This document shows positions 5,892 to 49,215 of a stretch of DNA of 64,000 nt, one piece after another; position 1 is the first letter of the stretch; every line of letters begins with the position of its first letter. The notes beneath the pieces were generated by a model. The model was given only the letters and a program-made list of their open reading frames with translations, was not told where the DNA came from and searched no databases. Position numbers and translations under genes: made by a program. The DNA comes from an uncultured Candidatus Rokubacteria bacterium (GTDB lineage Bacteria > Methylomirabilota > Methylomirabilia > Rokubacteriales > DASRDR01): the NCBI GenBank assembly GCA_963826115.1, contig CAWGVS010000006.1:1-64000 (forward strand). The letters run 5' to 3'.

Positions 5892-5967
5892 GCCGACGTA
5901 GCTCAGTTGGTAGAGCAGTCGATTCGTAATCGACAGGTCATCGGTTCAAGTCCGATCGTCGGCTCCA
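5892..5967 (+). tRNA. tRNA-Thr(CGT), 76 nt with encoded CCA; integration target
   Basis: Acceptor GCCGACG/CGTCGGC, D arm GCTCAGTTGGTAGAGC, anticodon stem GTCGA/TCGAC with loop TT-CGT-AA (CGT 5925-5927), T arm ATCGG-TTCAAGT-CCGAT, CCA 5965-5967. Confidence 0.97.
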
Positions 5968-6243
5968 GCTTTTCAATCACCTCCACGCGGCTGGCATCAA
6001 GCTCCGTTGAATTGGCTACCACTCCAGAGTCGGCCGCGAGTTTCGTGGGCCGGCCAACGTGCCGATCCGGGTGCATGTCCGTATGGATCCGACGGCGAGA
6101 CAGCTTCTGGCCGCGGGGCCCAAGGTTGCGCGGAGTAGCCCGGCACCTCGCCGTGCATCCCAGCGCCGTGCGGCGCGCCCTCCTGCGTGGGGCTTCAGGC
6201 TCGGAGACGGCGCATGCGCGTGCCTTCGGCCCTTGCAGGGCCG

Positions 6244-7170
6244 CTATCGGCCGTCCGGGATGTGCGCCCCGCGCTCCTTGAGGACGACTGGCGAACCTGA
6301 TTCCATCGGCATGGCTCGCCGCCGTGCCAGGATGCCCGCGATTAGCCCGTGGCTCGGGGCCAGAAGCCAGACCAGGCCGAAGAGAACCGTGGCCACCAAG
6401 ACGATGGTCCCACCCGCCGCCACGTTCCCGTGATAAGAGACCACCAGCCCCACGACGCCTGACATCGCCCCGATGGCGGCACTCAGCCCGAGCATGATCG
6501 GCAGACGGTCCGTCAGCAGCCGAGCGGTCGCCGCGGGGGTGACGAGCATGGCCACCACGAGGATGTTCCCGACCGCGCTCAGCGACACGACGATCGTGAG
6601 CGAGATCATCGCCAGCAGGAGGAGGTTCACCCAGAACACCGGCACGCCCATCGCCTGCGCGGCCTCGCGGTCGAAGGCGACCAGCAGCAACTCCTTGTGA
6701 AGGAGGACGAGGAGCAGGAGGACGAGACCGCCGACGGCCGCCGACAGGGCGATGTCCGCCGTGGTCACTCCCAGGACATTGCCAAACAGGAAGGCGGCGA
6801 GGTCTCGCGAGTAATTCCGGGTCGTGCTGATCAGAACTACGCCGAGCGCGAACGACCCGGCGAACAGGACCCCGATGGCCGAGTCTTCCTTGACCCGGCG
6901 CGTGGTCGCGAGGACCACGATCGAGGCGGAGGTCAACAGCCCGAACGCGAGCGCACCCAGGAACACGCTGCGTCCCAGGAGGAAGGCAATGACCACGCCC
7001 GGGAAGATGGCGTGGGAGAGGGCATCGCCGATGAACGAGAGCCCTCGCAGCACGACGTACGTGCCGATCGCGCCCGTGACCGCGCCCATGAGGATCACCT
7101 CGATCAGGGCGCGTTGCATGAACGCGTGCGCGAACGGCTCCACGAGCCAGTGGACGATGGTTTCCATCAT
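6244..7170 (-). CDS. Zn/Mn ABC transporter permease (ZnuB/MntB family)
   Basis: 'GTYVVLRGLSFIGDALSHAIFPG', 'AVGNILVVAMLVTPAATA'; multiple TM segments. Confidence 0.92.
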   Translation of the reverse strand: MMETIVHWLVEPFAHAFMQRALIEVILMGAVTGAIGTYVVLRGLSFIGDALSHAIFPGVVIAFLLGRSVFLGALAFGLLTSASIVVLATTRRVKEDSAIGVLFAGSFALGVVLISTTRNYSRDLAAFLFGNVLGVTTADIALSAAVGGLVLLLLVLLHKELLLVAFDREAAQAMGVPVFWVNLLLLAMISLTIVVSLSAVGNILVVAMLVTPAATARLLTDRLPIMLGLSAAIGAMSGVVGLVVSYHGNVAAGGTIVLVATVLFGLVWLLAPSHGLIAGILARRRAMPMESGSPVVLKERGAHIPDGR

Positions 7171-8075
7171 TCGTGCTCGCGACCGAGAGGCTCGTGGACG
7201 TGTCGATGGTGAGGGTGCTCGACGGGGTGCGGGGCATGGGGCGGATGGGAGGAGGTGTGAGGCGGGACCACGGTCGCGGCAGACCCGGCCGGCCCCAGCA
7301 TGATGACCGGACCGCCGTACGTTTCAGCCAGTATCGCGGCCGTGTACGTCTCCCGCGTCGGCCCGTACGATACCAACCGCTGATTCAGGCAGCAGAGGCA
7401 GTCGCAGGCGCAGGATGCGCTGACGAGGTCGTGCGTGGCGAGCAGGACGATCTTCCCCGTCTGGCGCCCGCTGTCGATGATGGTCCGAATCACCTCTTGC
7501 GTCTGGGCGTCGATCCCGTTGAACGGCTCGTCGAGGAGGAGGACGTCGGCGGCCTGCGCGAGGGCTCGCGCGACGAAGACCCGCTGCTGCTGCCCGCCCG
7601 AGAGCTGGCCGATCTGCGTGCGACGGAGCTCCCACATCCCTACCTGGCGCAGCACCTGCGCCACGACCAGGGCATCGGCGGCGCCCGGCCGACGGAGCCA
7701 CCCGATATGAGGATAGCGGCCCATCATCACGACATCCCACACCGTCACGGGGAAGTCCCAATCGATCACCTCACGTTGAGGGACATAGGCGATGCGAGAC
7801 CGCAGGGTGGCTGACGGACGCCCGAACAGCGTCACCGACCCCTGCACGATCGGGACGACGCCGAGGATGGCCTTCAGGAGCGTGCTCTTGCCGCCCCCAT
7901 TCGGCCCAATGATGCCGATGACCTGACCCCGCTCGATGCGGGCATTGACGCCGCGCAAGACGACCTTCTGCTGGTAGGCGACGGTCAAGTCGCGGATGAC
8001 GAGCGCTTCATCAGTCTCGTCCTTGACGTTCCCGCGCGATGGAAGGTCGGTCGGCACGGTCGTCACGGTTATCAC
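7167..8075 (-). CDS. Zn/Mn ABC transporter ATPase with His-rich C-terminal tail
   Basis: Walker A GPNGGGKST, LSGGQQQR, LLDEP, 'YVPQR..DWDFP'; tail HPPHAPHPVEHPHHRHVHE. Confidence 0.93.
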   Translation of the reverse strand: MITVTTVPTDLPSRGNVKDETDEALVIRDLTVAYQQKVVLRGVNARIERGQVIGIIGPNGGGKSTLLKAILGVVPIVQGSVTLFGRPSATLRSRIAYVPQREVIDWDFPVTVWDVVMMGRYPHIGWLRRPGAADALVVAQVLRQVGMWELRRTQIGQLSGGQQQRVFVARALAQAADVLLLDEPFNGIDAQTQEVIRTIIDSGRQTGKIVLLATHDLVSASCACDCLCCLNQRLVSYGPTRETYTAAILAETYGGPVIMLGPAGSAATVVPPHTSSHPPHAPHPVEHPHHRHVHEPLGREHE

Positions 8076-8076
8076 C

Positions 8077-8982
8077 TTACTTCAGGGCGTCGGCGATCTT
8101 CCGGGCATTCGCGAGCCACATGCCCTCCACGGTCTCCGCCCCGCTCCCCGCCGGGCCCAGCGAGTCGCCATAGAGGTCCTCCACGATCTTCACGCCGGCC
8201 TCCTTGGCGAGCGTCGCGGCCAGCTTGGGATTGACGTTCGACTCCGCGAAGATCGCCTTGACCTTCTCGCGCCGGATGGTGTCGAGCAGCTTGGCCGTCT
8301 CCCCCGCGGAGGGCTCGGCCTGGGTCGACACGCTCGGGATGACCGCGCCGACGATCTTGAGGCCGAAGGCCTTCGCGAAGTAGCCCAAGGCGTCGTGGTT
8401 CGTCACCAGCTTCCGGCCGCCGGGCGGGATCTCGTTGAGGATCGCCTGCACCTGCGCGCGGGCCTCGTCGAGCCGCTTCTTGTAGGCCGTGGCCCTGGTC
8501 TCGTAGTCCGTCTTGTGCGCCGGATCGACCCGGGTCAGCGCGGCGACGATGTTGTCGACCATCTTCTTGGCGTTGGCGGGATCGTGCCAGACGTGCGGAT
8601 CGTCGACCATCTTCCCGTCCTCTTCCCCTTTCTGGAGGCGCACCCCGCGTGTCACCGTCACGACGGTCGCCCGCTTCCCCGCCTTCAAGGTCCGGTCCAA
8701 CCAGTCGTCGAGCCCGATCCCGTGCCGGAGGATCAGCGTGGCGCCCTCCAGGGCGACCAGGTCGCTGGCCACGGGCTCGAACTCGTGCGGGTCGACGCCC
8801 GCCGGGATGATGCCTTTGAGCGCGACCAGGTCGCCGGCCACCGCGGTCGTCAACGCGGTGATCTGCACGGTGGTCGCGATGACCTTGGACTGCTCCGCGG
8901 CGCCCAACGGGCTGGCGGCGAGGAGAGACACCAGCACCGCCGGAACGAGGACCCACGACAGGAGTCTTCTGAATACGCTCAT
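8077..8982 (-). CDS. Metal ABC substrate-binding protein (ZnuA/TroA family)
   Basis: Start MSVFRRLL with signal peptide; 'DPHEFEP', 'DPHVWHDP', 'TNHDALGYF'. Confidence 0.92.
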   Translation of the reverse strand: MSVFRRLLSWVLVPAVLVSLLAASPLGAAEQSKVIATTVQITALTTAVAGDLVALKGIIPAGVDPHEFEPVASDLVALEGATLILRHGIGLDDWLDRTLKAGKRATVVTVTRGVRLQKGEEDGKMVDDPHVWHDPANAKKMVDNIVAALTRVDPAHKTDYETRATAYKKRLDEARAQVQAILNEIPPGGRKLVTNHDALGYFAKAFGLKIVGAVIPSVSTQAEPSAGETAKLLDTIRREKVKAIFAESNVNPKLAATLAKEAGVKIVEDLYGDSLGPAGSGAETVEGMWLANARKIADALK

Positions 8983-9869
8983 TGTGATGCTCCTTTGCCG
9001 GTCACCACCGGCTCGACAGATGGGAATGCGGTGATTCCAGCCGTACGTCGGGCGCCGCGAACGTGTGTGATCAAGGACCAGAGCAGCAGCGCGAGCCCGA
9101 ACACACAAGCGACCGTGGCACCCGTCGGCAGGTCGAGGGTGGCCGAGGCGAGCATGCCGATCAGGCTCACCGCGGCGCCAAAGACCCACCCGACCACGAG
9201 GCGGGTGGCGACCGAGCCGCCGATGGCCAGCCCGGCCAAGGCCGGGACGATCAGGTACGCGAACACCAAGAGCACGCCGGCCACTCGGACGGAACTCGTC
9301 ACGACCACCCCGAACGAGGCGTAGAAGAGGAAGTCCCAGAGCCGGACCCGCCAGCCCTCGCGGAACGCGGCCGCCGGGTCCAGCGAGATCAGGAAGAACG
9401 GGCGTCGGCACAGCCAGTGGAAAAGTCCGACGGCCGCGTAGAGGGCCGCCACCTTGGCCACGTCCGGCGCGCGGACGGCGAGAATGCTGCCCACCAGCAT
9501 GGTTCGCAGATGCTCGGCGCCGTGGGGCGAGCGGTCGGCCAGGAGCACGGCCGCGGCGGACGAGACCGCGTAGACCACGCCGATCACGGCCTCCTGGGAC
9601 ACGCGGCGCGTGCGGCTCCGGGTCATGGCCAGCACCAGCGCGCCGAGCAGGGTGGCCGTGAGACCGAACCAGTACGATCCCGGATCCTCGGGGTCGAACC
9701 CCACCAGGAACGCGGCCGTCGCTCCCAGGGCCGCAATCTGGGCGAGGGCGATGTCCACAAACACCACTTCTCGGGCGATCACGTGAATGCCGAGATAGGC
9801 GTGGATCCCCGTCAGCACGAGGCACATGAGAAAGGGGGCCCACATCAGCGCGAGGAGATCGCCAGCCAT
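8979..9869 (-). CDS. Second metal ABC permease
   Basis: 'HAYLGIHVIAREVVFVDIALAQIAALG', 'GVLLVFAYLIVPA'. Confidence 0.88.
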   Translation of the reverse strand: MAGDLLALMWAPFLMCLVLTGIHAYLGIHVIAREVVFVDIALAQIAALGATAAFLVGFDPEDPGSYWFGLTATLLGALVLAMTRSRTRRVSQEAVIGVVYAVSSAAAVLLADRSPHGAEHLRTMLVGSILAVRAPDVAKVAALYAAVGLFHWLCRRPFFLISLDPAAAFREGWRVRLWDFLFYASFGVVVTSSVRVAGVLLVFAYLIVPALAGLAIGGSVATRLVVGWVFGAAVSLIGMLASATLDLPTGATVACVFGLALLLWSLITHVRGARRTAGITAFPSVEPVVTGKGASQ

Positions 9870-9883
9870 GCGAGCGTCGCCTC

Positions 9884-10837
9884 CTACCGCAACGCCTGGG
9901 CGAGGGTGTTCACGTTGTACGCGATCCAGTCGAGGTAGGCCTCGGCGCCCTTGACCGCGCCGGCTCCGGGGGCGAGGAGAACGACCCGCGCCCCGGTGTC
10001 GGCCGCCAGGCGGTCCGCCAGCTTCCGGTCACCCCAGGGCTCGAGGATGAGTGCCTTCACACTCTGCGCCTTCATTTGAGCGGCGAGCCGCACCAGGTGT
10101 CCTGGCGTCGGCGGAATGCCGGGTCGCTCCTCCACGGTCCCGCCCAGGACGAGGCCGTACCGCGCGAAGAAGTAGGCCCACTGGCTGTGGTCGACGACCA
10201 CCTTCGCGCCTTTGAACGGGGCCAAGGTTCGCGCCCAGTCCGCCATCGCCGGCTCGAGGCGCGCCAGGAACGCCGTCCGGCCGGCCTCGAAGGCCGGCCG
10301 CTGCTCCGGCGCGACCCGAGCGAGTCCATCGACGATGTTGGCGGTGATGATCGTGGCCATGCCCGGGTCGAGCGTGTAGTGGGGATTCCCCACCGGATGG
10401 ACGTCCCCCATCGAGCGGTCGACCTTGCCCGCCGGCACCTCGAGGACCGGAATGCCGATGGACGCGTCGACCCGCCCGGGCGCCCCGGGGATGAGCCGCG
10501 GGTTGTTGGCCCCCTGAATCGAGACCTCGGCCCAGCCGTCGAGCTCGAGGCCATTCAAGATCACGAGGTCGGCCCGTCTGAGCTTCACCATCTGCGACGG
10601 GCGAATCTCGAGGTCGTGCGGATTCTGGTTCCCGCGGGCCAGCGAGTCGACCTCGACCAGATCGCCGCCCACGGCCTGTGTGAGGGCCTTCAGGTCGGTC
10701 GTCGAGGCCACGACGCGGATCCGGTCGGCCCCTGCCGCCGGGCGGGGGCCAGGACCCCCCGCCCAGCCGAGCACGAGCCCGATGCCGATCACGGGGATCA
10801 CAGAGCGTGGGGCGAGCCGACGGATGAGTCGTCGCAT
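9884..10837 (-). CDS. Second metal ABC substrate-binding protein
   Basis: Start MRRLIRR; 'QNPHDLEIRPS', 'GDVHPVGNPHYTLDP', 'EERPGIPPTPGHL'. Confidence 0.9.
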   Translation of the reverse strand: MRRLIRRLAPRSVIPVIGIGLVLGWAGGPGPRPAAGADRIRVVASTTDLKALTQAVGGDLVEVDSLARGNQNPHDLEIRPSQMVKLRRADLVILNGLELDGWAEVSIQGANNPRLIPGAPGRVDASIGIPVLEVPAGKVDRSMGDVHPVGNPHYTLDPGMATIITANIVDGLARVAPEQRPAFEAGRTAFLARLEPAMADWARTLAPFKGAKVVVDHSQWAYFFARYGLVLGGTVEERPGIPPTPGHLVRLAAQMKAQSVKALILEPWGDRKLADRLAADTGARVVLLAPGAGAVKGAEAYLDWIAYNVNTLAQALR

Positions 10838-12699: not shown

Positions 12700-12703
12700 G
12701 CCA

Positions 12704-13625: not shown

Positions 13626-14285
13626 TCACGCTGGCCTGAGACAGCGGCGAGTCGAATCGACGATGACCATCCGCCGCCGGGCGCCACGGCCAGCACCGAC
13701 GCGGTGCTCCGCCGGTGCCACGGAGGCGCCCGGCGGGAGCCCGTAGAGCGACCGGATCGTCGCGATCACGTCCGGCGTGAACTGGCCATTTCCCCCATCG
13801 GCATCCATGAGACCCCCGTCCCGGGTGTGGTTCAGAAACCCGATGGCGTGGCCGATCTCGTGCGTCACCGTCCGCTGACAGAACGGTCCGCGAAAATCCC
13901 GGACCACCTGGATATCCACATCCGTGATCGCCCCCTGGTCGGTGTACCCGACCTCGGCGAGCCCACAGATGTCGGTGCCGAGTCCGTATCGGAACGACAC
14001 TTCCGCCCGGGCGGCGCTCCCGACGAACGTGAACGTGACGGCCCCGCCCGTGGCCTGCGTCCACGCGACAACTTCGTCCGCCCGCGCGATGCCGTTGAGG
14101 AACACGCGCACTGGCAGCGGGGCCCAACGCACGGTCGCCCCGTCGTTGAACTGGGCATTGTGCTCGTAGAGTCCCGCATTGCGGGTCGTTGGACCGGTCG
14201 GGCTGTCCTTCCCCCCGCAGGCGGCGAGGCCGCGCCCCAGCAGGAGCATCCCAACCCCCCGACACAGGGACCGTCGCGTCATCAT
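13626..14285 (-). CDS. Matrixin/metzincin zinc-metalloprotease lipoprotein (paralog 1)
   Basis: Lipobox LAAC; HEIGHAIGFLNH followed by Met-turn 'GGLM'; RBS AGGAGG. Confidence 0.85.
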   Translation of the reverse strand: MMTRRSLCRGVGMLLLGRGLAACGGKDSPTGPTTRNAGLYEHNAQFNDGATVRWAPLPVRVFLNGIARADEVVAWTQATGGAVTFTFVGSAARAEVSFRYGLGTDICGLAEVGYTDQGAITDVDIQVVRDFRGPFCQRTVTHEIGHAIGFLNHTRDGGLMDADGGNGQFTPDVIATIRSLYGLPPGASVAPAEHRVGAGRGARRRMVIVDSTRRCLRPA

Positions 14286-14747
14286 GCCCTGCCCTCCTGC
14301 CAGCCAGCCGCGCCGCGAGCGTCGCTGATCGGCGCACATCGAAGTGAGCACGCCCCGGACGTCCCGATCATCGGGAGAACCCGGCCGGCACGTCGGCGCC
14401 TGATGTCCTCAAAGTCCTGCCGGGGTCGTTACGCCCGCGGCTGAGCGGACCGTCGGCGCGCTCCCTGGACAACTCGCCTCCGTGGCCGTGGTCGGGCGCG
14501 CCCGGCCAACGGTCCCGGACAGCCTCGCGTACGACACCGGTGCACCCGGCCGAAACATCGCTCCCGGCGGCTTCGAGATCGGCCTGATCATCAGCGGATC
14601 CTCCTGCCCACCTTCCACCGGCGCTCAATGTTCACCCGTGACCTCATCGCTCCGAGGGACACGGACGAATCGACCGCCCGCATCGCGGAGCCCACACGTC
14701 GGCGACCCTCACGCGGCCGCGTCAGGCCGGTCGAGGTCGAGGGGCTG

Positions 14748-39061: not shown

Positions 39062-39335
39062 CGTCCTCCAACTCGGCGATTCCCAACTGCTTTCGGCACG
39101 AGCCGTGGAGCTGCCATGGAGCAGACTGCCTTGCCTGGTGTGCACCGGTCGCGAGATAGGCGCGCGCAGTCCGAGCGTGTGTGGAAGCTCTTAAGCGCTC
39201 GTCACGGCAGGACGATCCCGTTCTCCCAGCTGGACGTCCGTTGTTGGCGCGAATCTCGCTAGGTGGCTCGTGTAACGCTCGCGATGGGATCGCCCTTACA
39301 CCGCCTGCCGGCGCGGCGGCGTACTAGATGAGCGT

Positions 39336-39734: not shown

Positions 39735-39761
39735 TATCCGGCCGCACAAAGGAGAACGGTC

Positions 39762-41108
39762 ATGCATAAGCGCGCTCGATCCACGTGGGTAGTGCTCGCG
39801 TGCGTCCTCGGTCTGACGGTGTTCGGCTGTCAGGCCATGCGGAGCGGCGGCTCCAAGATCCAGCCGGCCATGGGGACCGCCGTGCAGGCGACGCCCGAGG
39901 CGATCGAAGAGGCGCGCGCCGAGGTCTTGAGGAAAGACCGGGCCCAGCGCGCCGTGTGGGCGACCAAGACCTTCGAAGAGTTCGAGCGGTCCGTCTACAA
40001 GGAACCGTTTCCGGGGGGCAAGTACATAGTCAACGGCGACATCGCCATCTCGGATCGCAAGCAGCTCAAGGAGTTCTTCGAGACGAGCATCAAGCAGGAG
40101 CCGCCGCAAACCCAGCCGGGGCGGCTGATCGTCCAGCATTCGGGGGTCGACGCGGTCTGGAACAGCACCCAAAAGAAGCAGATCACGTACTGTGTGAGCA
40201 CGACCTTCGGCACTCGCCGCGCGAGCGTCGTGAGCGCCATGCAGGCGGCGACCGGCGCGTGGTCGCAGGTGGCCGACGTCGCCTACGTGTACGTCGCGTC
40301 CCAGGACACCACCTGCACCCCGAATAACGCGAACGTCGTGTTCGACGTCAACCCCGTCAACGTGAACGGCGAGTACCTCGCCCGAGCCTTCTTTCCCAAC
40401 GAGCCTCGGGCGGTGCGCAATGTGCTGATCGACGAGACGGCATTCCAGCTCGACCCGAGCGGCAAGCTGACGCTCGTCGGCATTCTTCGCCATGAACTCG
40501 GACACACCCTGGGCTGGCGGCACGAGCACACGCGCCCGGAGTCCGGCACCTGTTTCGAGGACAACGAGTGGCGGCCCCTGACGTCATACGACAGCTTTTC
40601 CGTCATGCACTATCCGCAGTGCAATGGCGCCGGGGACTGGTCGCTCACCCTCACCAACTTCGACAAGAATGGCGCCGCGTGCCTCTATGGGGCGGCGCCC
40701 GGGTTCGTGATGGATCCCAGCCTCGTGGTGAGTCCGGGGGCCTGTCAGGTCGCGGGCACGCCCACCACGCCGCCGGGGTGCGGACAGCAGCAAGTCAAGA
40801 CACTCAACGATCAGCGGGTGGCGAACGGCGAGGAGAAGTCGTACCCCGCCTTCACCGTCTCGCCCGGAAGCCGCTTCGAGGTCAAGATGATCGGCGACGG
40901 CACCGCGCCGGGCGATCCTGATCTGTACGTCCAGTTCGGCCAGGCCCCGACGCGTGTCGCGAACGGCTACGCGTGCCGGCCCTTCGTCAGCGGGCCATCG
41001 GAGGGTTGCGCGCTCGACGTCCCGGCAGGGAAGACGACCGCCTTTGTCATGGTGCACGGCTACACCGCGGGTGCCTACGATCTGACCGTCACCTACACCG
41101 GTCCCTAG
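39762..41108 (+). CDS. Secreted zinc metalloprotease (M57/matrixin-like) with C-terminal PPC domain
   Basis: 'YIVNGDI', 'ARAFFP', HELGHTLGWRH, 'SVMHY', PPC 'GDPDLYV..G.AP'. Confidence 0.88.
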   Translation: MHKRARSTWVVLACVLGLTVFGCQAMRSGGSKIQPAMGTAVQATPEAIEEARAEVLRKDRAQRAVWATKTFEEFERSVYKEPFPGGKYIVNGDIAISDRKQLKEFFETSIKQEPPQTQPGRLIVQHSGVDAVWNSTQKKQITYCVSTTFGTRRASVVSAMQAATGAWSQVADVAYVYVASQDTTCTPNNANVVFDVNPVNVNGEYLARAFFPNEPRAVRNVLIDETAFQLDPSGKLTLVGILRHELGHTLGWRHEHTRPESGTCFEDNEWRPLTSYDSFSVMHYPQCNGAGDWSLTLTNFDKNGAACLYGAAPGFVMDPSLVVSPGACQVAGTPTTPPGCGQQQVKTLNDQRVANGEEKSYPAFTVSPGSRFEVKMIGDGTAPGDPDLYVQFGQAPTRVANGYACRPFVSGPSEGCALDVPAGKTTAFVMVHGYTAGAYDLTVTYTGP

Positions 41109-41158
41109 GCGCGTCGGCTCGGTGGCGCAACGGGCGTTCGGGAGGGAGTGACACTCGC

Positions 41159-42655
41159 ATGCCGATCCGTTTCCTCCCGAACGACCCGTTCGCGCTCGCG
41201 CTCGTTCCGCCACGAGAGCAGCCGCCTCGACCGGATCCAAATGTCCGGCAGGTCGGCTTCAGCTACACCGCGGCGATCCCGGAAGCGGTCTATCCGGTCG
41301 ACAGCGCCGAGTTTCGATTCTGGCAGTGTCGAGAAGCCGCCTTGGCCACGCTCGAGGCCTGGGCGGCGCTGGCGCCGCCGCTCCAGGCCTGGCAGAACGG
41401 CCAGCGGCTGCTTCCGCTGGTGCACGACGCCGGACGAGGGCTCAACGCCCACTACGACCGCGCGGCCGTGGCATTTTTCGGCTGGGAAACCGCCGCTCGG
41501 AGCACCTATCCGGCGGCCAGCACCGACGCGGTGGCGCACGAGGTCGGGCATGCGCTCCTCGACGCCGCCCGCCCCGAGCTGTGGGCGAGCGTGTATCCGG
41601 AGCCGGCCGCGTTTCACGAAGCCTTCGCGGATTGCATGGCCCTACTCGTGAGTCTCTTCGACGCGGGGCCGCGTCAGGCTCTGCTCCAGGGCGGTGGGCA
41701 TCTGCGAGTCGCGAACTTCCTCGAGACCCTGGCCGAGGACGTGGCCGAAGGCGTGCGACTCGAGAATCCCAATGACCCCCAGTCGCTGCCCCGCCGCGCC
41801 TTGAACACGCTCCAGTGGGAGATCCCGGTGACCCTGCCGCCGGCTGGCCTTCCCGCGGCTCTCACGTCGGAGCCGCACAGCTACAGCCGCATCTTCACCG
41901 GCTGCTTCTACGACGCCGTCTGCAACATCTTCGCGGGCCAGCCGGCTCAGGATGAACAGGGGCTTCTCGCGGCGGCGCAGACGGCGGGTCGGCTGCTGAT
42001 CGCCGGCGCTCAGGGCGCGCCTGAGGTCCCGCGTTTCTTCCAAGCCGTAGGCCGCGCCATGATGCTCGCCGACGAGACTGCGAGCGGGGGCGCCCATCAC
42101 GCGGCCATTCGCGACGCGTTCGCCGGTCACCAGATCGCGATCGGGAGCACGGTGATGCTGGCCCCGACGTCGGGGCTGGCCGGCCCCGCGCCCGCCGTGG
42201 ATGCGGCGACCGGGACGGCACGCCTTCCCGCCGTCGCCGTTCGCGATCTCCTGACGCGCATCGGCGCCCCGCGCGGCCGGCTGACCGTGACCGCCCACAA
42301 GGTCGGCGGCCAAGCCGTCGCCAAGGCCATCCATCGACGCGACATCGCCCTGGGGAAGCTCGATCGACGCCTCAAGGGAGTCGTCGTGCCCGCCGTCGAG
42401 TCTGTGCTCGTCGGTGCCAGCGCCGCACGAGCCGTCGTCTTGGGTCACCTGCCGAATGCGCACACGACCCTCGACGAGGTCCATCACTTCGTCGGAACGT
42501 TGCTGGAGCATGGCGCCATCGTCATGTCGACTGCCAAGCGCCCGAGGACACGGAAGACCGCGGCGCCCTACAGGGCACTCCTGCCGACTCACAGGCTCCA
42601 GACGCGCGGCAGCAAGAAGGTCCTCCAGCGCGTGCGTTTTTCGTGTGGCCCGTGA
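41159..42655 (+). CDS. M4/M36-like (gluzincin) metallopeptidase
   Basis: 'LNAHYDR', 'DAVAHEVGHALLD', 'AFHEAFAD', 'EPHSYS'. Confidence 0.8.
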   Translation: MPIRFLPNDPFALALVPPREQPPRPDPNVRQVGFSYTAAIPEAVYPVDSAEFRFWQCREAALATLEAWAALAPPLQAWQNGQRLLPLVHDAGRGLNAHYDRAAVAFFGWETAARSTYPAASTDAVAHEVGHALLDAARPELWASVYPEPAAFHEAFADCMALLVSLFDAGPRQALLQGGGHLRVANFLETLAEDVAEGVRLENPNDPQSLPRRALNTLQWEIPVTLPPAGLPAALTSEPHSYSRIFTGCFYDAVCNIFAGQPAQDEQGLLAAAQTAGRLLIAGAQGAPEVPRFFQAVGRAMMLADETASGGAHHAAIRDAFAGHQIAIGSTVMLAPTSGLAGPAPAVDAATGTARLPAVAVRDLLTRIGAPRGRLTVTAHKVGGQAVAKAIHRRDIALGKLDRRLKGVVVPAVESVLVGASAARAVVLGHLPNAHTTLDEVHHFVGTLLEHGAIVMSTAKRPRTRKTAAPYRALLPTHRLQTRGSKKVLQRVRFSCGP

Positions 42656-42795
42656 TCAGCCGACGGCATCCCGGGACCCGACCTAACCAGCGTGTTGTCG
42701 CGATGCGTGGCCCGCGCGCCGCCGAGACACGGCCCAGAAGGCGCCTTCGCTGAGCCAATCGACCGATCCCGTGGAGAGCCGAGGTACGCTCAGAA

Positions 42796-42933
42796 TCGGC
42801 GACCAATTGGCGCCGAGCTAGCCGAACTGCCCCGACCCGGGACGATCAGGGCCACCTGGCTCTTCGCTGAGATGTCGCTCGCTGACGTCGTCTGGGATCG
42901 CGCCGAAGCCCGACGCATTCGAGCACGCAATCA
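42796..42933 (+). repeat. Orphan att arm without tRNA core
   Basis: tcggcgaccaa-ttggcgccga followed by arm-like sequence; gtcgtctgggatcg lies at the same offset (71 nt) as gtcgactgagatcg in junction 6. Confidence 0.6.
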
Positions 42934-42984
42934 GCGGCCCCGTCAATCCGAGACGCTACGGGCCGAGACGCTACGGGGACTTCA

Positions 42985-43872
42985 CTAGTGGTCGGCGGCA
43001 CGAGAGACGAGATCATGCCAGCTGCCGGAAGGCGTCCAGCCGAGTTCCCGGCGAGCGCGCTCATTGTCGTAGGGGCTGGCGCGTGGATTCTGACGGTAGA
43101 TCTCCGGTTTCCGGATCTCGGGAAGGGTGCCGTACACGTCGTGGAGATGATCGAGCGTCGGCCGTGGCTCGAACGTGTCGTCGGCTGTAATGAGGTAGGT
43201 GGCGAAGGCGGGGCCTGCCCGCTCGAGCGCCAGCCGGACCGCAAACGCGACGTCCCAAGGTGCGACGTACGAACGCAATAGCGGGATCGGCTCCGGGGGG
43301 TGAGCAGGATCGCCCGGAGACCCGAGACCATCCACCAGGCGTGCCACGATGTCCGGGAACATGATCCACGCGGGCCGAAGGCACGTGAAGGCCATCGGGC
43401 CGCGGCGGGCGAAGCTGTGCGCGATGTCTTCGCCGAGTTGCTTGCTGAGGCCGTAGGGCTGCGTGGGGCGGAGTGGGTGATCTTCGTCGATCGGGAGGTA
43501 CAAGGGCGGCCGGGTGGGGTTCGTGTGGTCGATCCCGAATGCCGAGACGCTGCTGCAGAGGACGACCCGCTGCACGCCATTCGACTGCGCTGCGTCGATC
43601 ACGTTCCAGGTGCCGCGGACGTTCGTCTCGAAGACGGTCGCCGGGGGGGCCGGGACCGACGCGTCAATCGCCGCCAGGTGAACGATCGCGTGCACACCCC
43701 GCAAGACGCGCTGGAGGTCCGGCAGATCGAGGATGTCGATGGGGAGGTCCGGCGCGATGTGGGTCTGGGCGAGGTCGAGAGTGGTCACGCGGTAGTGGGG
43801 CCGGAGCGCGGCGACGACGAACCGTCCGAGCCGCCCTGTCCCTCCGGTGACGAGCACGTGTTCGATCTGCAC
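42985..43872 (-). CDS. NAD-dependent epimerase/dehydratase
   Basis: TGGTGRLG, 'VHLAA', YGLSK. Confidence 0.88.
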   Translation of the reverse strand: MQIEHVLVTGGTGRLGRFVVAALRPHYRVTTLDLAQTHIAPDLPIDILDLPDLQRVLRGVHAIVHLAAIDASVPAPPATVFETNVRGTWNVIDAAQSNGVQRVVLCSSVSAFGIDHTNPTRPPLYLPIDEDHPLRPTQPYGLSKQLGEDIAHSFARRGPMAFTCLRPAWIMFPDIVARLVDGLGSPGDPAHPPEPIPLLRSYVAPWDVAFAVRLALERAGPAFATYLITADDTFEPRPTLDHLHDVYGTLPEIRKPEIYRQNPRASPYDNERARRELGWTPSGSWHDLVSRAADH

Positions 43873-44247
43873 TGTGATCTCCGGCACGAGAGTATGTGGT
43901 GGGAGAACTCGGGCTCTCAATAACCAATGGCTCGAAGATATGGGCAGCGACAGCTTCGGGCAAGAGCATCGTCGATGGCAGTGGCGGGGGAGTTGTCTGT
44001 TCCATCACTTCCACGCCGCTCGTAGCACGCTCCGTTGAAGAGGCTACCCTTTGGCGACCAACCTCTTGCGATTCCTACCGACCTCGTCCAGCCCCACCCC
44101 ACGACGGGCCGCTGCAGCGGACGAGCATGGCGGGCACGCCGAGCAGGTCCTGTGCTCAATCCTTGGGGCAATCCCGCGTCAATCGCGGACGCGTGGCCGG
44201 TCCGACTTGCCAACTTCGGCCAGCCAGCGCTCGATCGGGTCTCGACC

Positions 44248-45261
44248 TCAGCGCCCGCGTTGCATGGTCTTCTCCCAGAAGCGGATGGCGTCGGCCATCC
44301 ATCCTTGGGCACTCGTGCCTGTACCGAGCCCGAAGCCATGGCCGAGATTTACGAACTTGTGATACTCGACCAGCGTACCGGCCTTGCGAAGGGCCGCGAT
44401 CCGCCGCTCCATGCTCGACGCGGGCGCAATCACATCTTGGTCACCGACGACGACAAAGGTCGGAGGCTCATCGGACGAATAGTCTGAGTGAGCGGTGTAC
44501 GCCATCACGACGGCGGACGGTCTTGGAAGGTCGTCACCCCCAAACCCTAAAACACCCTGCGAAGCGATTGCAGCCGCCATCCTCGCGCCCGCCGAACTAC
44601 CCCACACCGAATAGTCCTTGGTGCTGACTCCGAGCGTACCTGCACTCCTGAAGATATAGGAGATGGCTGCCGCCATGTCCTCGGTGGCCGCCGCGCTGCC
44701 ATGGCCGGCCCGGTATTTCAGGACGAAGGCGTTGTATCCATTCCGGCTGATCTCCACTGCATGGGGGAAGCCTTCGTGGACGGAGCCCACGTAGGAGAAC
44801 CCGCCACCCGGGGCGACAACGGCAAACGGCGCTCCGGCCTTTCCGCGGAAGAAGAACAACCCCGTATGTTCTTTCGATGGCTCTGCCCGCTTCTGCGCCT
44901 CGGCGTAGAAATCAAAGAACATGGTCGTGCCCCTGTTCACATCGTCGATCATGTGATTCAAGGCACCCACCACGACGTCCGGACTCACATGGCTGTGATA
45001 CGGCAGCAGCGAGCCGATGTTGCTCAGCCGCGTGTCTTGATCATGGGCGCGATCGTCCCAGGGCAGTATCAACCGCCCATGACCTGCGAACGCCGGATGA
45101 TTCAGGACGTCCCGGATACGGCTGGCCACGCTCAGGTGGCCGTCGGTCACCATCTCACTCGCGACACCACGGGAGAGGACACCCTCGCTCTTTCCAGCCT
45201 CCGCAAGCGAAGCCATGGATAGCAGCGATAGCGCCCAGCCAGTGGTTCTGAGGAGATCCAT
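44248..45261 (-). CDS. Secreted alpha/beta hydrolase (esterase)
   Basis: 'PGGGFSY', GSSAG nucleophile motif, 'GHGFGLG'. Confidence 0.88.
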   Translation of the reverse strand: MDLLRTTGWALSLLSMASLAEAGKSEGVLSRGVASEMVTDGHLSVASRIRDVLNHPAFAGHGRLILPWDDRAHDQDTRLSNIGSLLPYHSHVSPDVVVGALNHMIDDVNRGTTMFFDFYAEAQKRAEPSKEHTGLFFFRGKAGAPFAVVAPGGGFSYVGSVHEGFPHAVEISRNGYNAFVLKYRAGHGSAAATEDMAAAISYIFRSAGTLGVSTKDYSVWGSSAGARMAAAIASQGVLGFGGDDLPRPSAVVMAYTAHSDYSSDEPPTFVVVGDQDVIAPASSMERRIAALRKAGTLVEYHKFVNLGHGFGLGTGTSAQGWMADAIRFWEKTMQRGR

Positions 45262-45570
45262 TCTCCTAATTGTGGACCCTTGTCCCGGCCGCCGCCAACG
45301 TGATGGCGGTGAACCTGCCTCGGTTGCTCGGTCGTGCGCGGCGGAACGCAGGCGATCCTCGCCACGGCCCTCGGGCTACGCCTCCCGGGGCGCCGGCCCG
45401 CCCTTTGACCGCCGCCGGAACCATAGCGCGGCTCCGCCGGGGCCGGTCAAAACGGCTGGAGCTCATGACCGCTTCCGCCTATACCGGACGAGGCGGGACT
45501 TGACTGATGTCCCCATCGAAGGCGGCGGGCCCGAGCGTCGCGAGGAGCCGTCGCACCGCGTGCGGGTCCG

Positions 45571-46674
45571 TCACCGCCCCCGGGATCCGGCGCGGGCCGC
45601 CGCGGCGCGCCGGCGGGAAGGGCGCGAGGCCTTGCCTGCGCGTCGTCCCCCAGCCGTAGCAAGTCTCTTCCGCGCCAGCGCGGCGCCCTCCGCCAGGGCT
45701 TTCAGCTTGGCGAGGGCGACCTCGCGCGCCATCGGCGCCATGCCGCAGTTGGTGCACGGGAACAGGTGCTTCGCCGGCACGTACTTCAGCGCCCGCCGGA
45801 TGGTCGCCGCGACCTCCTGCGGCGTTTCGACGTCGTCGGAGGCGACGTCGATCACCCCGACCAGCACGTCCTTGCCCTTGAGCAGTCCCAGCAGCTCGAC
45901 CGGCACCTTGGAGTGAATGCATTCCAGCGAGATCTGGTCGACCTTGCTCTTCGCCAGCGCCGGGAAGATCTCCTCGTACTGGCGCCATTCGCCGCCGAGG
46001 GTCTGTTTCCAGTCGAGGTTGGCCTTGATGCCGTAGCCGTAGCAGATGTGCACGACGGTCGTGCACTTGAGACCGGCGATCGCGCGGTGTACCGCGGCGA
46101 TGCCCCATTTCTTCACGTCTTCCATGTAGACGTTGAACGCCGGCTCGTCGAGCTGGATCACGTCGACGCCGTCCTTCTCCAGCGCGCGCGCCTCCTGGTT
46201 GAGCAGCTCGGCGAACGCCATCGCCAGCTTCACCTTGTCGCCGTAATGGCGATCGGCGATGGTGTCGACGATGGTCATCGGCCCCGGCATGGTGATCTTC
46301 ACCTTGTGCGTCGTGTTGCTGCGCAGCAGGGCGGCGTCCTTCTGGTGGACGCGCCCCTTCAGCCGCAGCGGCGCGACTACCACCGGCACCATGGCGTCGT
46401 AGCGGTTGTTGCGGATCCCCATCTTCACCTTGTGCTCGAAGTCGATGCCCTCGACGTACTCGAGGAAGCCGTGCACGAAGTGCTGCCGCGACTGCTCGCC
46501 GTCGGTGACGATGTCGATGCCGGCGACCTCCTGCTCCTTCAGCCAGAGCAGGGTGGCGTCGCGCTTGGCGCGCTCGAGCTCCTCGCCCGCGGTGCGCCAC
46601 GCCGGCCACAGCTTGTTGGTCTCGGCGAGCCAGCCGGGCTTCGGCAGACTTCCGGCGATGGTGGTTTCGAACAC
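45571..46674 (-). CDS. Cobalamin-independent methionine synthase, core catalytic domain only (MesD-like)
   Basis: 'AGSLPKP.WLAE', 'DGEQSRQHFV', 'HICYGYG', 'PCTNCGM'. Confidence 0.88.
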   Translation of the reverse strand: MFETTIAGSLPKPGWLAETNKLWPAWRTAGEELERAKRDATLLWLKEQEVAGIDIVTDGEQSRQHFVHGFLEYVEGIDFEHKVKMGIRNNRYDAMVPVVVAPLRLKGRVHQKDAALLRSNTTHKVKITMPGPMTIVDTIADRHYGDKVKLAMAFAELLNQEARALEKDGVDVIQLDEPAFNVYMEDVKKWGIAAVHRAIAGLKCTTVVHICYGYGIKANLDWKQTLGGEWRQYEEIFPALAKSKVDQISLECIHSKVPVELLGLLKGKDVLVGVIDVASDDVETPQEVAATIRRALKYVPAKHLFPCTNCGMAPMAREVALAKLKALAEGAALARKRLATAGGRRAGKASRPSRRRAAAARAGSRGR

Positions 46675-46972
46675 GGTCGGTTTTCCTCCTGGCAGGATCC
46701 GACGGCCGAGCGGTACTGTGTCTCACTCTGGCGGCCGGCTTCGTCGCGCTGGCCTGCCTCGGGGCGCTGGAGTACAGCAACCGTCTCCGTCCGGAGCGGC
46801 GACGTCAGCGGACAGAATCCGCGTACGCGTCCTCTGCTTCGCACGGTCCCCGACTGGCTTGGTTCCCCGATCGTTGCCCGCGCCTTGCTGCTGGGAGTCG
46901 TCCCGGACGCTTCTTCGTCGGTGCGGGGCGCCGAGCTGACGCCCCGCACCGACGCCCTTCCTGGGCTATGGG

Positions 46973-47392
46973 CTACTGGCTTGCGATGTTCCCGCAGAAA
47001 ACGTAGGTGTTGGCTTCCTGGGCCGACTTGTGGCCGTTGATGGCGAAGCCTTTCCGGAGATCGCCGATCTGCACGTCAATCACCGTCTCCGACTTGCCAT
47101 CGGTCAGCGTCGTGAGCCCGAAGGTCGGCTTGGGATCGATTTGCGCGCACGTCCCCTTGTGGACGTGCAGCGGCTGACCGACGCCCGCCGGCGCGCCCTT
47201 GATGTTGACGACGACCTTGGTCTTCGTCCCCGCCGCCTCCTCGCTGAGCACGGCGGTTCCCGACTCACCCGAGCTGTTCAGCGGCCCCAGCTGGACCGTG
47301 ATGGGCTCCGCCGCATTGGCCACTCCCGCTCCAACGAGTGCCAGGACGCCGACCGCTACCAGTGTCGAACCGAATGATCGAAGCATCGTCAC
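46973..47392 (-). CDS. Small secreted protein (CHRD/Cu-Zn SOD-fold-like)
   Basis: Signal peptide; 'QPLHVHKGTC', 'AINGHKS..CGNI'. Confidence 0.65.
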   Translation of the reverse strand: MTMLRSFGSTLVAVGVLALVGAGVANAAEPITVQLGPLNSSGESGTAVLSEEAAGTKTKVVVNIKGAPAGVGQPLHVHKGTCAQIDPKPTFGLTTLTDGKSETVIDVQIGDLRKGFAINGHKSAQEANTYVFCGNIASQ

Positions 47393-47641
47393 CTCCTGTG
47401 TTGTTCGACGGGACTGTCATCCCACCGACACTGGCCATGATCCCCCAGCCGTATCGCGCCCGCAAGGCCCATGTCCCTGGCCGGCGCGTCGACACCGAGC
47501 GGAAGGAGGCGGGTTCTTCGGAGCCGTCGGCCACGGGATGGATGAGCTGCCCGGGCGGCACGTCGCGAAGCGCGGCGATCGCCGGGCGGCGCTGGAGCCG
47601 ATTCCCCGGGGCGTCCGCCCGCTATCGGCGGGCGCGATCTA

Positions 47642-47824
47642 GTCTCGGGGCGTTCCGTCGAAAGCGGGCGGGGTCATGTCGACTCAGGTCGGCTGAGTAA
47701 CGCTGGGGTTCGGCATCCTCATCCGTTCGCAATCGACGGGTCATCGGTTCAAGTGGGATCGTCGGCTCCAGTCTTTCGACCACGTCCACGACGCCTCGGC
47801 CGCTGCAGCCCGATTGGTCCCCGA
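47642..47824 (+). repeat. att junction 5
   Basis: Upstream arm closely similar to that of junction 6; tRNA half 47726-47771 (4 mismatches); ttggtccccga 47814-47824. Confidence 0.85.
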
Positions 47825-47948
47825 TCGTCAGGTACGGGCACGTCCCGCGGAGCACGAGTGGTTGACGGCCGTTCGCTCCTGGATGGCTGCGAGCCATGAG
47901 GGCTCCGACTGCCTTGGACGACCGCAGGCGCGGTGGGCGGCAGGCACG

Positions 47949-47954
47949 TATAAT
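47949..47954 (+). promoter_or_regulatory. -10 box of the Tim44-domain gene
   Basis: Perfect TATAAT in GC-rich context; AGGAG RBS before ATG 47991. Confidence 0.55.
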
Positions 47955-47990
47955 GACGCCGTAGCTGTTGACCCAGATGAGGAGAGCGCA

Positions 47991-48950
47991 ATGAAGCGGT
48001 GGATCGTGATGATTGCCCTGACCAGCCTGACGGTTCTTCCGGCCCTTTGGGGCAGCGATGCGTGGGCGCGAGCGGGCGGCGGAGGCTCGAGCGGGAGCCG
48101 TGGATCGCGCAGCTATTCGGCGCCTTCCTCGCCGAGGGTTGCGCCGACGAGCCCGGCCCGCCCGAGTCCGGCGCCCCCGGCGGGCTTCCAGCAATCGCCG
48201 CAGCGGTCCGGCTGGGGGGCCGGCATCGGCGGGATGCTCGGCGGCCTCGTTCTGGGCGGCCTCATCGGTAGCCTCCTCTTCGGCGGCGCGGGGCAGATGA
48301 GCGGCGGCATCGGTCTTCTCGAGATCATGCTTGTCGCGGGGCTCGCCTACTTCGCGTTCTCATTCTTCCGCCGGCGCCAGGCCCTCACCGCGGCACCCGC
48401 GGGGTACGCCGATCCGGGCGCGATGGGCGCGGCCTGGCACCCCGAGCCCACGTCGCGGTCCACCGCGGTCCTCGAGACCCCGGCTCCGACCGCGGCGACT
48501 GATCTCGCCCGCGGCGTCGCGCACATCCGCCAGATGGACCCGGGCTTCGATCCGGCGCGCTTCGGCGAGCCGGCATCGGACGTGTTCTTCCGCGTTCAGG
48601 CGGCATGGATGGCCCGCGACGTGGGGAGCGTGCGTGCCGCGCTCACCGAGGAGATGCACGCGACGATGCAGGCCCAGTGTCACCAGCTTCGGGCACAGCG
48701 TCGCGTGAACCGGCTCGAGAACATCGCGGTGCGCTCCGTGGATGTCACCGAGGCCTGGCAGGAAGGCGGCCAGGACTTCGTGACGGTCTGCTTCCTCGCG
48801 AGCCTGCTAGACTTCACGACGGACGAAAGCGGGACCCAGTTGCTCGAGGGCAGCCGCACCGAGCCCGTCAAGTTCGAGGAGTACTGGACCTTTGCGCGTC
48901 CGGTGGGGTCCGGTCCCTGGCGGCTGTCGGCGATCCAGCAGCCCAGCTGA
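47991..48950 (+). CDS. Tim44-domain membrane protein
   Basis: 'ARAGGGGSSGSRGSRSYS', Gly-rich TM region, 'DPGFD', 'KFEEYWTFARP...W.LSAIQQ'. Confidence 0.88.
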   Translation: MKRWIVMIALTSLTVLPALWGSDAWARAGGGGSSGSRGSRSYSAPSSPRVAPTSPARPSPAPPAGFQQSPQRSGWGAGIGGMLGGLVLGGLIGSLLFGGAGQMSGGIGLLEIMLVAGLAYFAFSFFRRRQALTAAPAGYADPGAMGAAWHPEPTSRSTAVLETPAPTAATDLARGVAHIRQMDPGFDPARFGEPASDVFFRVQAAWMARDVGSVRAALTEEMHATMQAQCHQLRAQRRVNRLENIAVRSVDVTEAWQEGGQDFVTVCFLASLLDFTTDESGTQLLEGSRTEPVKFEEYWTFARPVGSGPWRLSAIQQPS

Positions 48951-49034
48951 GGCGGAGCGACCGCTACCGCTCGATTGCCTTCGGGGCGTTGCTGCCAGTG
49001 CTCACCGTCAGGGGCTTTTCCTCCGATGGCCATT

Positions 49035-49215
49035 CTGGCGACCGAGAGGTCACCTAGCCGGACGAACCACGAGAACCTGGCGGGACCTTCGTCTCGGAGT
49101 ACTCCGTCGAAAACAGGCGCGGTTACGTCGACTGAGATCGGCTGAGTAACGCCGGGTTCGGTATCCGCATCCGTTCGTAGTCGACAGGTCATCGGTTCAG
49201 CCCGATCGTCGCCTC
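49035..49215 (+). repeat. att junction 6 (most degenerate; right end of array)
   Basis: ctggcgaccga-gaggtcaccta 49035-49056; degenerate tRNA half 49174-49215 lacking CCA and downstream arm. Confidence 0.8.

Follow-up and report, generated by a model that had tools for sequence, protein, structure and literature searches.

Serial integration at a tRNA-Thr gene followed by loss of mobility modules as a likely origin of an integrase-less island array in a Rokubacteria genome

How do blocks of unrelated genes come to be stacked behind a single tRNA gene when none of them carries a recognisable integrase? The question is raised by a 64,000-nt stretch of DNA from an uncultured Candidatus Rokubacteria bacterium (hereafter the window), taken from the very start of a 1.24-Mb contig (C6; CAWGVS010000006.1) in a metagenome-assembled genome of 6.24 Mb and 72% G+C (GCA_963826115.1, labelled G000 here; 99% complete, with an estimated contamination of 5.3%). 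In this window, the 3' half of a tRNA-Thr(CGT) gene recurs five times and delimits five units of cargo (Table 1). Serial insertions of tyrosine-integrase elements at this tRNA-Thr hotspot, followed by the loss of their mobility modules, are in our judgement the most likely origin of the array, and we hold this view with moderate confidence because the data fit a model of integration, decay and further integration. Such a model, in which elements decay to cis-mobilisable elements (CIMEs) and further elements then integrate, has been published (PMC5704250), and comparable courses of events are described for tycheposon islands (bioRxiv 10.1101/2020.12.28.424599) and for the ssrA islands of Dehalococcoides (PMC3146451).

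The repeated core corresponds to the 3' 45 nt of the tRNA-Thr gene (5923-5967) and starts with TTCGTAATC at the first base of the anticodon loop. The first-pass annotation had placed direct copies at 31622, 37272, 38607, 47726 and 49174, and all of them were recovered, at start-to-start spacings of 25699, 5650, 1335, 9119 and 1448 nt. Core mismatches grow with distance from the tRNA gene, from none in the first two copies to two at 38607 and four at 47726, and end in truncation, the fifth copy (49174-49215) being degenerate and lacking its 3' end. With up to three mismatches allowed, the window holds 4 core matches, against 0 expected in 100 shuffles. As in tandem islands made at tRNA genes by tyrosine integrases, the locus begins with an entire tRNA gene, behind which the 3' part is repeated five times in direct orientation. 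The G+C content of the array (0.63-0.70) is lower than that of the flank at 51-60 kb (0.72-0.74) and of the contigs (0.705-0.728).

Each repeat extends beyond the tRNA half, and the internal copies form attP-like modules of ~250 nt with paired GGTCACCAA-type arm repeats. Upstream of the copies at 31622, 37272, 38607 and 49174, ~140-170 nt resembling a P arm are shared and contain paired repeats such as GGTCACCAACTGGTCACCAAGG; these direct repeats of 9-10 nt (e.g. TTGGTCACCAACTGGTCACCAAGG) lie ~125-135 nt ahead of the core in the same four copies, and the copy at 47726 retains only ~85 nt of the upstream stretch and no arm repeat. Downstream, a P'-like stretch of ~55-70 nt, often with another TTGGTCACCAA, is common to the internal copies and the true tRNA gene. 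The tRNA gene thus has the downstream arm only, the copy at 49174 the upstream arm only and the internal copies both, a layout that reads as a putative attL, attP-like hybrids and a putative attR, as would be left by tandem integration of P-core-P' elements, with the paired repeats as putative arm-type integrase-binding sites. From the start of its core, junction 1 is identical to 5923-5987 over 65/65 nt, and the P' class of junction 2 is the one that stands behind the tRNA of an intact element in the related genome G014. In the whole 6.24-Mb genome, TTGGTCACCAA is present four times, each time inside the array, and a whole-genome search found the att repeat family nowhere else. The arm repeats fall into several classes, namely GGTCACC, GGCTACC, CTTATCGAC and TGTGCGGG in the Thr arrays and at least four in a second array at tRNA-Lys, and this points to several integrase specificities rather than to one resident enzyme. 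An orphan P'-like remnant within unit 4 (43997-44048) is the scar of a deleted junction, and together with the truncated P arm at 47642 it shows that deletions have cut into junctions. The units are flanked by attL/attR-type sites, as CIMEs are, and their P and P' arms are common to the intact G014 element and to other copies in the genus. The proposals of the first-pass annotation that the repeats are att sites, with tyrosine-integrase crossover in the segment from the anticodon loop to the 3' end, and that tandem accretion gave attP-like internal junctions and integrase-less CIME-type units, are borne out by these data.

Table 1. Features of the tRNA-Thr array, with positions in the 64,000-nt window, and matching arrays in genomes of the same genus
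Feature	Position (nt)	Strand	Content and basis
tRNA-Thr(CGT), attachment target	5892-5967	+	Sole tRNA in the window by ARAGORN
P'-like arm, attL side, GGCTACC subclass	5968-6022	+	Common with downstream sides of internal copies
Unit 1, 25.7 kb	5968-31621		Metal homeostasis (Pfam)
Junction 1, attP-like	31480-31735	+	P arm TTGGTCACCAACTGGTCACCAAGG at 31484-31507; core 31622-31666 (45/45); P' arm TTGGTCACCAA at 31711
Unit 2, 5.65 kb	31667-37271		Three GT2-type glycosyltransferases and a Methyltransf_24 protein (Pfam)
Junction 2, attP-like	37130-37395	+	P arm GGCCACCGATTGGTCACCAAGG at 37135-37156; core 37272-37316 (45/45); P' of the TGTGCG-repeat class
Unit 3 cargo, lone S-adenosylmethionine (SAM) methyltransferase	37420-38265	-	Unit spans 37317-38606, 1.3 kb (Pfam)
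Junction 3, attP-like	38465-38710	+	P arm GGCCACCAATCGGTCACCAAG; core 38607-38651 (43/45); P' arm TTGGTCACCAA at 38696
Unit 4, 9.1 kb	38652-47725		M10-like and M4-like peptidases, epimerase, alpha/beta hydrolase, MetE-like protein, small unknown open reading frame (ORF) (Pfam)
Orphan P'-like remnant in unit 4	43997-44048	+	81% identical to 5969-6020; neither core nor P arm adjoining
Junction 4, decayed	47642-47825	+	Truncated P arm without GGTCACC pair; core 47726-47770 (41/45); degenerate P' GATTGGTCCCCGA
Unit 5 cargo, lone Tim44-like protein	47991-48950	+	Unit spans 47771-49173, 1.45 kb (Pfam)
Terminal attR-like site	49037-49215	+	P arm GGCGACCGAGAGGTCACCTAG; 3'-truncated degenerate core 49174-49215; no P' arm
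GT1-type glycosyltransferase	49430-51322	-	After the last att copy and before the conserved flank (~51362) (Pfam, synteny)
G004 array			tRNA and four copies; units of 32.8, 36.1, 9.7 and 30.2 kb
G014 and G003 arrays			tRNA and one copy each
G013 array			Two copies
G008 arrays			Seven copies on three contigs

Metagenome assembly and the estimated contamination leave room for a trivial explanation, namely that the repeats are misjoins of unrelated contigs at conserved tRNA sequence, which tRNA-like repeats can attract. We consider such an artefact very improbable, given that the window lies within a 1.24-Mb contig, that the copies differ from one another, show graded decay and have distinct arms, and that like junctions occur independently in six other genomes and in the metagenome contig L148. 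Contigs from public runs also agree with the window: record 11 of run X2 spans the junction at 38607 (38592-38838) without differences, and record 1 of run X1 (~8x) runs from the 31622 core into unit 2, matching 31622-32053 (432 nt) with 0 differences. These public data consist of short, low-depth Logan contigs from 4 runs with a best word share of 0.35, too sparse for rare excision products or for depth. The one joint near att copies in public contigs, from 31688 to 37391, which skips 5702 nt and has 27 letters on its short side, was set aside as a repeat artefact because it is out of register with the 5650-nt spacing of the repeats.

If these are integration sites, the enzyme that used them has left no trace in the window. 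The tyrosine recombinase family PF00589 has 10 matches genome-wide and the serine recombinase family PF00239 one (contig C5), with 0 in the window in both cases, and four integrases of relatives gave no match in C6:1-64000 by tblastn at E up to 10. Neither a recombinase, transposase, relaxase nor phage gene was present among 37 in-array ORFs scanned with Pfam (DDE transposase families had no separate search), a PHROGs scan of 10 ORFs, eight of them without a Pfam match, returned no mobility gene, and no resident recombinase was found upstream of tRNA-Thr, either here or in relatives. By these searches, the units are without integration and transfer genes of their own, which is again the condition of CIMEs. 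No close homologue of the cognate integrase was found in the rest of the genome, the best match being a 38%-identical paralogue (C2:35923-36975) with no tRNA fragment adjoining; small integrase fragments are present on C1 and C12. Counted by position, an integrase trace stands at none of the six Thr sites and at one of the 13 tRNA-Lys sites, where a C-terminal fragment lies directly behind the copy at 629730. A search of viral contigs for the exact 45-nt core gave 0 matches.

The integrase is found in relatives. When junction 3 was searched against 14 genomes of the same genus, 11 matched, several with more than one copy per contig, and arrays were examined in five of these genomes (G003, G004, G008, G013 and G014), which together hold 18 tRNA or att copies; G012 was unusable as a repeat-free relative, its assembly being unmatched even for the tRNA part of the query. 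The first-pass annotation had suggested comparing unit content downstream of tRNA-Thr among relatives, and array content does differ in every one of them, with unit 3 standing directly behind the tRNA in L148. At the DNA level, the relatives' array cargo is unrelated to that of this genome except for unit 5, whose block of gene, P arm and core is 90% identical in G008 (contig C95); there it forms the end of a 17.8-kb unit, with a P' arm behind it. In G003, a 9.1-kb unit of other content separates the tRNA from an att copy, beyond which lies a homologue of window 51362-53406, and the distal flank (window 51362 onward) is common to G003 and, behind a tRNA-Glu fragment, to G002.

The intact element of G014 starts 73 nt behind the tRNA with a 399-aa PF00589 integrase (P0001) encoded on the strand opposite to the tRNA. 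This is followed by an HTH_3 gene of the Cro/CI type, an excisionase-like HTH_17 gene and a DnaB_C-type helicase gene, and then by cargo that includes a MIP (aquaporin) and an MscS channel, and a copy of P arm plus core lies 52.9 kb away. Conjugation genes were absent from 10 scanned genes of this element. G005 has an integrase 76% identical to that of G014 in the same position; an integrase inside the island by the att site, which the window lacks, is thus present in G014, G005 and G004, all of the same att family. Among the relatives' 18 copies, 8 have an integrase signal just distal to them and 10 have none. One of the 8 signals is full length (G014), one is a 318-aa frame, one a 240-aa frame and one an open frame of 361 aa in G013 whose PF00589 match falls below the cutoff, and the remainder are three frameshifted pieces and fragments of 42-43 aa. 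The relatives show every stage of integrase decay at these att copies. An origin of the present units by decay of complete elements would agree with the stages seen in relatives and with the scar at 43997-44048; an integrase remnant is present in none of the five units themselves.

From these observations, the following sequence of events can be proposed. An intact element would consist of a P' arm, an integrase gene of ~400 aa on the opposite strand, genes for a Cro/CI-type HTH protein, an HTH_17 protein and a DnaB-type helicase, cargo and a P arm, and would bring its own replacement for the last 45 nt of the tRNA; this composition is seen in relatives and inferred for the present genome. Crossover within the 45-nt identity would restore an intact tRNA followed by P' and leave P plus a core copy at the far end. 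Newcomers would then insert at the intact tRNA and push older elements outwards, as the decay gradient and L148 suggest, so that internal junctions would become P-core-P' hybrids. Next, the integrase and replication module beside P' would be deleted, some deletions also removing junctions and merging units; all stages of this step are seen in relatives, and in the window its end state alone. Useful or harmless cargo would persist while the att scars drift neutrally, and the array would by now be either fixed or mobile only if an integrase of the cognate type enters from outside, because the genome has no close homologue of that integrase.

The Thr array is not the only one of its kind in this genome. 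A screen of the last 40 nt of every tRNA against the genome (blastn-short) revealed a second array at tRNA-Lys(CTT), in which 12 direct copies of the 3' 40 nt plus the terminator hairpin are spread over C12:593851-647576 (loci L078-L081). Its units of 1.0-10.6 kb have the same architecture as those of the Thr array, with at least four classes of paired upstream arm repeats, and five of the copies have 40-nt identical cores. The cargo consists of genes of ordinary metabolism, transport and regulation, gene fragments included, and the lone recombinase trace is the C-terminal integrase fragment at 629404-629568. Other tRNAs of the genome have one or two extra 3' copies. For tRNA-Glu(CTC), a partial copy lies ~10 kb downstream (C6:676349-686661), and more copies of its 3' end are located at C1:76013-76038 and at the end of the unit-1 homologue in G002 (C2:11691-11717, locus L066). 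Islands anchored at tRNA genes appear to be general in this genus. ARAGORN also calls a tRNA-Pyl(CTA) at C12:686301-686373, close to a match to the 3' end of tRNA-Arg(TCT) at 685028-685067; rather than a genuine tRNA for pyrrolysine, the call probably reflects a pseudo-tRNA or what is left of an att site.

Serial integration followed by decay has to be weighed against several observations that fit it poorly, the first of which concerns where the cargo is found elsewhere. The unit-3 methyltransferase is present in 80 metagenome loci; in 14 soil metagenome contigs with the whole gene, nucleotide identity is ~86-93% and homology ends 10-70 nt from the ORF. Its neighbour in L148 is a complete tRNA-Thr gene with a matching core/P' junction (~90% identity). 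It is also found near a tRNA-Glu(CTC) gene or its fragments in L088 and L090 and, by eye, in L089 and L092, and direct repeats of tRNA-Glu att-side sequence enclose it in L088-L090 and L092. Further copies lie near a tRNA-Met fragment (L094), near a tRNA-Val gene (L099) and, in G008, near a tRNA-Arg(TCT) fragment and an ORF that by eye resembles a remnant of an IS110-type transposase. In several of these contexts, a short hairpin is located just past the stop codon of the gene. Other cargo is similarly dispersed. The unit 1 metal cluster occurs in five relatives at 72-92% identity, never behind tRNA-Thr: its end abuts a tRNA-Glu(CTC) fragment in G002, followed by the homologue of this genome's flank, it adjoins a tRNA-Lys(CTT) array in G003 and a tRNA-Leu with an integrase-like ORF in G008, it lies ~4 kb from a tRNA-Phe fragment in G012, and in G004 it stands elsewhere on the contig of the array. 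In G014, the unit 4 peptidases are 91% identical at a non-array site and the unit 4 hydrolase is part of a tRNA-Glu island. The flanks of the cargo are mosaics with breakpoints at gene ends. The occurrence of the methyltransferase and other cargo at varied tRNAs indicates that flexible genes of the genus circulate among tRNA-anchored islands, and simple decay does not account for the spread of one gene to the neighbourhood of five tRNAs (Thr, Glu-CTC, Met, Val and Arg-TCT).

The remaining difficulties lie in the array itself. The junction of unit 3 (core, P' and methyltransferase) is old in its integrase-less form, being common to the window and L148; as it stands directly behind the tRNA in L148, the array must have kept growing once unit 3 was already without an integrase. 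The integrase-less left end of unit 2 may likewise stand directly behind a different tRNA-Thr in another population, since the X1 contig carries it behind a variant tRNA-like 5' half that differs from the tRNA-Thr of this genome at about 5 of 30 positions. None of the five Thr units (tblastn E up to 10) has any integrase trace, and 11 of the 12 Lys units are likewise without one. Deletions would also have to take a module of 4-5 kb repeatedly and yet spare a P' arm of 55-70 nt. This is partly an ascertainment effect, as units with deleted junctions go uncounted, but the pattern remains remarkable where a unit of 1.3 or 1.45 kb holds a single gene.

In a rival reading, the units would be cassettes: non-autonomous units of cargo plus a ~250-nt attP would be excised as circles and inserted at the tRNA by integrases acting in trans, or in cis from a neighbouring or incoming intact element, and the array would behave as an integron that has no integrase of its own. 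Both arms are intact around the two one-gene units, the integrase-less junction of unit 3 is conserved in L148 as the first behind the tRNA, and unit 5 recurs in G008 with matching P arm and core in another unit context. The methyltransferase near five tRNAs, with tRNA-Glu att-side repeats bracketing it in four contigs, and the scarcity of integrase traces in both arrays point the same way, as does, weakly, the one low-depth X1 contig that joins a different tRNA-like 5' half to the left end of unit 2. In addition, cis-mobilisation of CIMEs by adjacent functional elements is documented (PMC5704250) and accepted in the sources drawn upon (PMC5704250, PMC3146451). On balance we nevertheless regard such a cassette platform as unlikely, though as an explanation to be reckoned with. 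No close homologue of the cognate integrase is present in the 99%-complete genome, the several arm classes would require several integrases, and in relatives integrases in graded states of decay stand at precisely these sites. The arms show no sign of constraint and drift at about the synonymous rate, although the samples are small: between unit 3 and L148, where the core is the working tRNA itself and identical (45/45), the P' arm is 78% identical with 12 gaps and the third codon positions of the adjoining gene 83.4% identical, and between unit 5 and G008 the corresponding values are 82.4% for the P arm and 84.3% for third codon positions. Moreover, the arm repeats are gone from junction 4 and the last core is cut short, the mixed gene orientation and the multi-operon cargo of up to 25 kb are unlike cassettes, and no excision product is found in the public reads, which offer low-depth contigs only. 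This is the reading that the first-pass annotation had proposed, with non-autonomous units captured at the tRNA and mobilised in trans as a functional analogue of an integron. No positive result of the present analysis supports that part of it. The lack of a close cognate-integrase homologue, the integrase decay in relatives, the several arm classes, some of them degenerate or truncated, the drift of the arms and the decay of the cores with distance are all better fitted by the integrate-decay-integrate model than by a maintained cassette platform.

In a broader version, the five Thr and 12 Lys units would belong to actively shuffled, tRNA-anchored stacks that hold much of the flexible gene pool of Rokubacteria and whose units have no need of their own recombinase. 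Rare complete elements would supply integrases of several arm specificities to move small units, some as small as one gene with its ~250-nt att module, and single genes would be repackaged repeatedly behind Thr, Glu, Met, Val and Arg tRNAs by a hypothetical cassette-forming step; we think this doubtful. Variation among arrays could also arise with no site-specific recombinase at work once the first scars exist, if the att modules of 100-300 nt served as portable homology and units were gained, lost or exchanged by RecA-dependent crossovers when one strain took up DNA carrying the array of another. Such homology would be provided by cores that are identical over 45-65 nt at 5923, 31622 and 37272 and over 40 nt at five Lys copies, array content differs between relatives while the distal flank and, mostly, the upstream gene are constant, and the flanks of the cargo are mosaics broken at gene ends. 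Homologous exchange cannot, however, generate the first att copies or the arms, and deletion between direct repeats should collapse arrays before they reach 5 and 12 units. It is therefore improbable as the origin of the array, but it may add to either of the other processes, and serial integration with subsequent loss of the modules remains the explanation that we prefer.

The cargo of the five units is as the first-pass annotation had claimed, according to Pfam scans of the 37 in-array ORFs. The number of genes per unit ranges from about 1 to 25, with both strands in use, and in units 1, 2, 3 and 5 the core and the first cargo gene are 100-280 nt apart. Unit 1 encodes two ZnuA/ABC-3 sets, Fur, a methyltransferase, an ATP-grasp protein, two Band_7 proteins and a P-type ATPase, as well as an SbmA/BacA-type ABC protein, a DPBB protein, a DUF1007 plus NicO protein and an FAD mono-oxygenase. 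It is probably composite, judging by its left and right arms, which differ in subclass, and its internal paralogues likewise suggest a composite origin: 13626-14351 (-) and 26507-27175 (+) are 69%-identical genes of unknown function, of which one gives a weak M10-like match, and the two Band_7 genes and the two sets of ZnuA plus ABC-3 genes (6244-10801) are further duplicates. Unit 4 probably represents two or more merged units, as indicated by the internal arm remnant. The GT1-type glycosyltransferase gene beyond the last att copy has no counterpart at the matching junction in G003 or G002 and may be an older unit that has lost its distal att site.

On the other side of the tRNA, the window differs from the relatives. 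G002, G003, G005, G008 and L148 share a Pro/Ala-rich, lipoprotein-like ORF upstream of tRNA-Thr that is not found there in this genome and is a homologue of C4:227313-228587 in its own sequence. In G003, the stretch immediately upstream of tRNA-Thr carries the homologues of window 61339-63998 in inverted orientation (window 61290-64000 against G003:C8:3656156-3658883, locus L059). Taken together with the differing upstream gene, this suggests that the segment from the tRNA to ~61 kb has been inverted or rearranged in this genome. The region upstream of tRNA-Thr contains large repeat proteins (319-1029 and 4326-5516) and tandem repeats, with five units of 147 nt in one region and four of ~374 nt in another, the latter being up to 98% identical over an aligned 81-nt segment; an 855-aa ORF with Kelch/MBG domains (1730-4297) adjoins the repeat regions.

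How does the array compare with known systems? Integrons likewise stack accessory genes at one site, with the newest nearest the insertion point and with units that have no recombinase of their own and are in some cases single genes. They possess a resident intI, an attI site and a cassette promoter, and their attC sites are imperfect palindromes recombined as folded single strands between mostly co-oriented single ORFs. In contrast, the Thr array has no attC hairpins, its boundaries being ~250-nt attP-like duplex sites with direct arm repeats and tRNA-half cores, and it lacks a resident intI, with Kelch/MBG repeat proteins upstream of the tRNA instead; its units reach 25 kb with several operons in mixed orientation, and there are several arm specificities. 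The islands mapped by Islander/TIGER are delimited by direct repeats of the 3' part of a tRNA and, as here, form tandem arrays at hot tRNA genes. These tools define islands by an integrase gene or by comparison with an empty site, so that integrase-free arrays would be missed or called remnants.

Among described elements, the CIMEs related to ICESt1/ICESt3 of Streptococcus thermophilus have likewise lost their integration and transfer genes and kept attL and attR (PMC5704250). Set against what that source describes, the present genome has five units plus 12 at tRNA-Lys and no functional partner element, the target is a tRNA, the host belongs to an uncultured soil phylum, and the parent elements have genes for an integrase, an excisionase-like protein and a helicase, without conjugation genes among the 10 scanned genes of the G014 element. 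Tycheposons of Prochlorococcus are also tyrosine-recombinase elements that integrate into tRNA genes and leave partial tRNAs; they combine a small module (recombinase, excisionase, and helicase or primase) with nutrient-uptake cargo, including zinc homeostasis, and lie side by side, parted solely by partial tRNAs, with newer elements pushing older ones inwards (bioRxiv 10.1101/2020.12.28.424599). Broken integrase genes and isolated partial tRNAs are taken in the same preprint as marks of earlier integrations (bioRxiv 10.1101/2020.12.28.424599). Compared by gene layout alone, the G014 element has the tycheposon arrangement and the window does not; phylum and setting (a high-G+C soil genome) differ as well, and the arrays described here are longer and have no detectable recombinase gene. 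Finally, Dehalococcoides has multiple tandem islands that lie between its ssrA gene, the target, and directly repeated copies of the 3' end of that gene. Their integration module sits immediately beside attL and is encoded on the reverse strand, and islands without the module are discussed as cis-mobilisable or fixed (PMC3146451). Unlike the Thr array, these islands target a transfer-messenger RNA (tmRNA) gene, have a 20-bp repeat and use a large serine recombinase, DsiB, and not a tyrosine integrase with arm sites (PMC3146451).

The kind of array is therefore already known, and the instance is new for the phylum as far as a limited literature search on Rokubacteria, integrase and tRNA shows. 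The mechanism is ordinary and the degree is extreme, with seventeen att-bounded units in two arrays of one genome and a single integrase fragment between them. The locus illustrates how accessory functions, here zinc and metal uptake, glycosylation, secreted peptidases and methyltransferases, build up behind tRNA genes in a barely studied soil phylum, and the cognate type of element, with its integrase, excisionase-like protein, helicase and cargo, is known from relatives. It also provides a test bed for a question of island biology, namely whether integrase-less units are inert relics or cargo still open to mobilisation in trans, and it supplies defined parts for a simple excision and integration assay in the form of P0001 as integrase, the arm repeats and units with one gene each. 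Should the reading as a stack of cassettes prove true, the array would be a tRNA-based counterpart of the integron.

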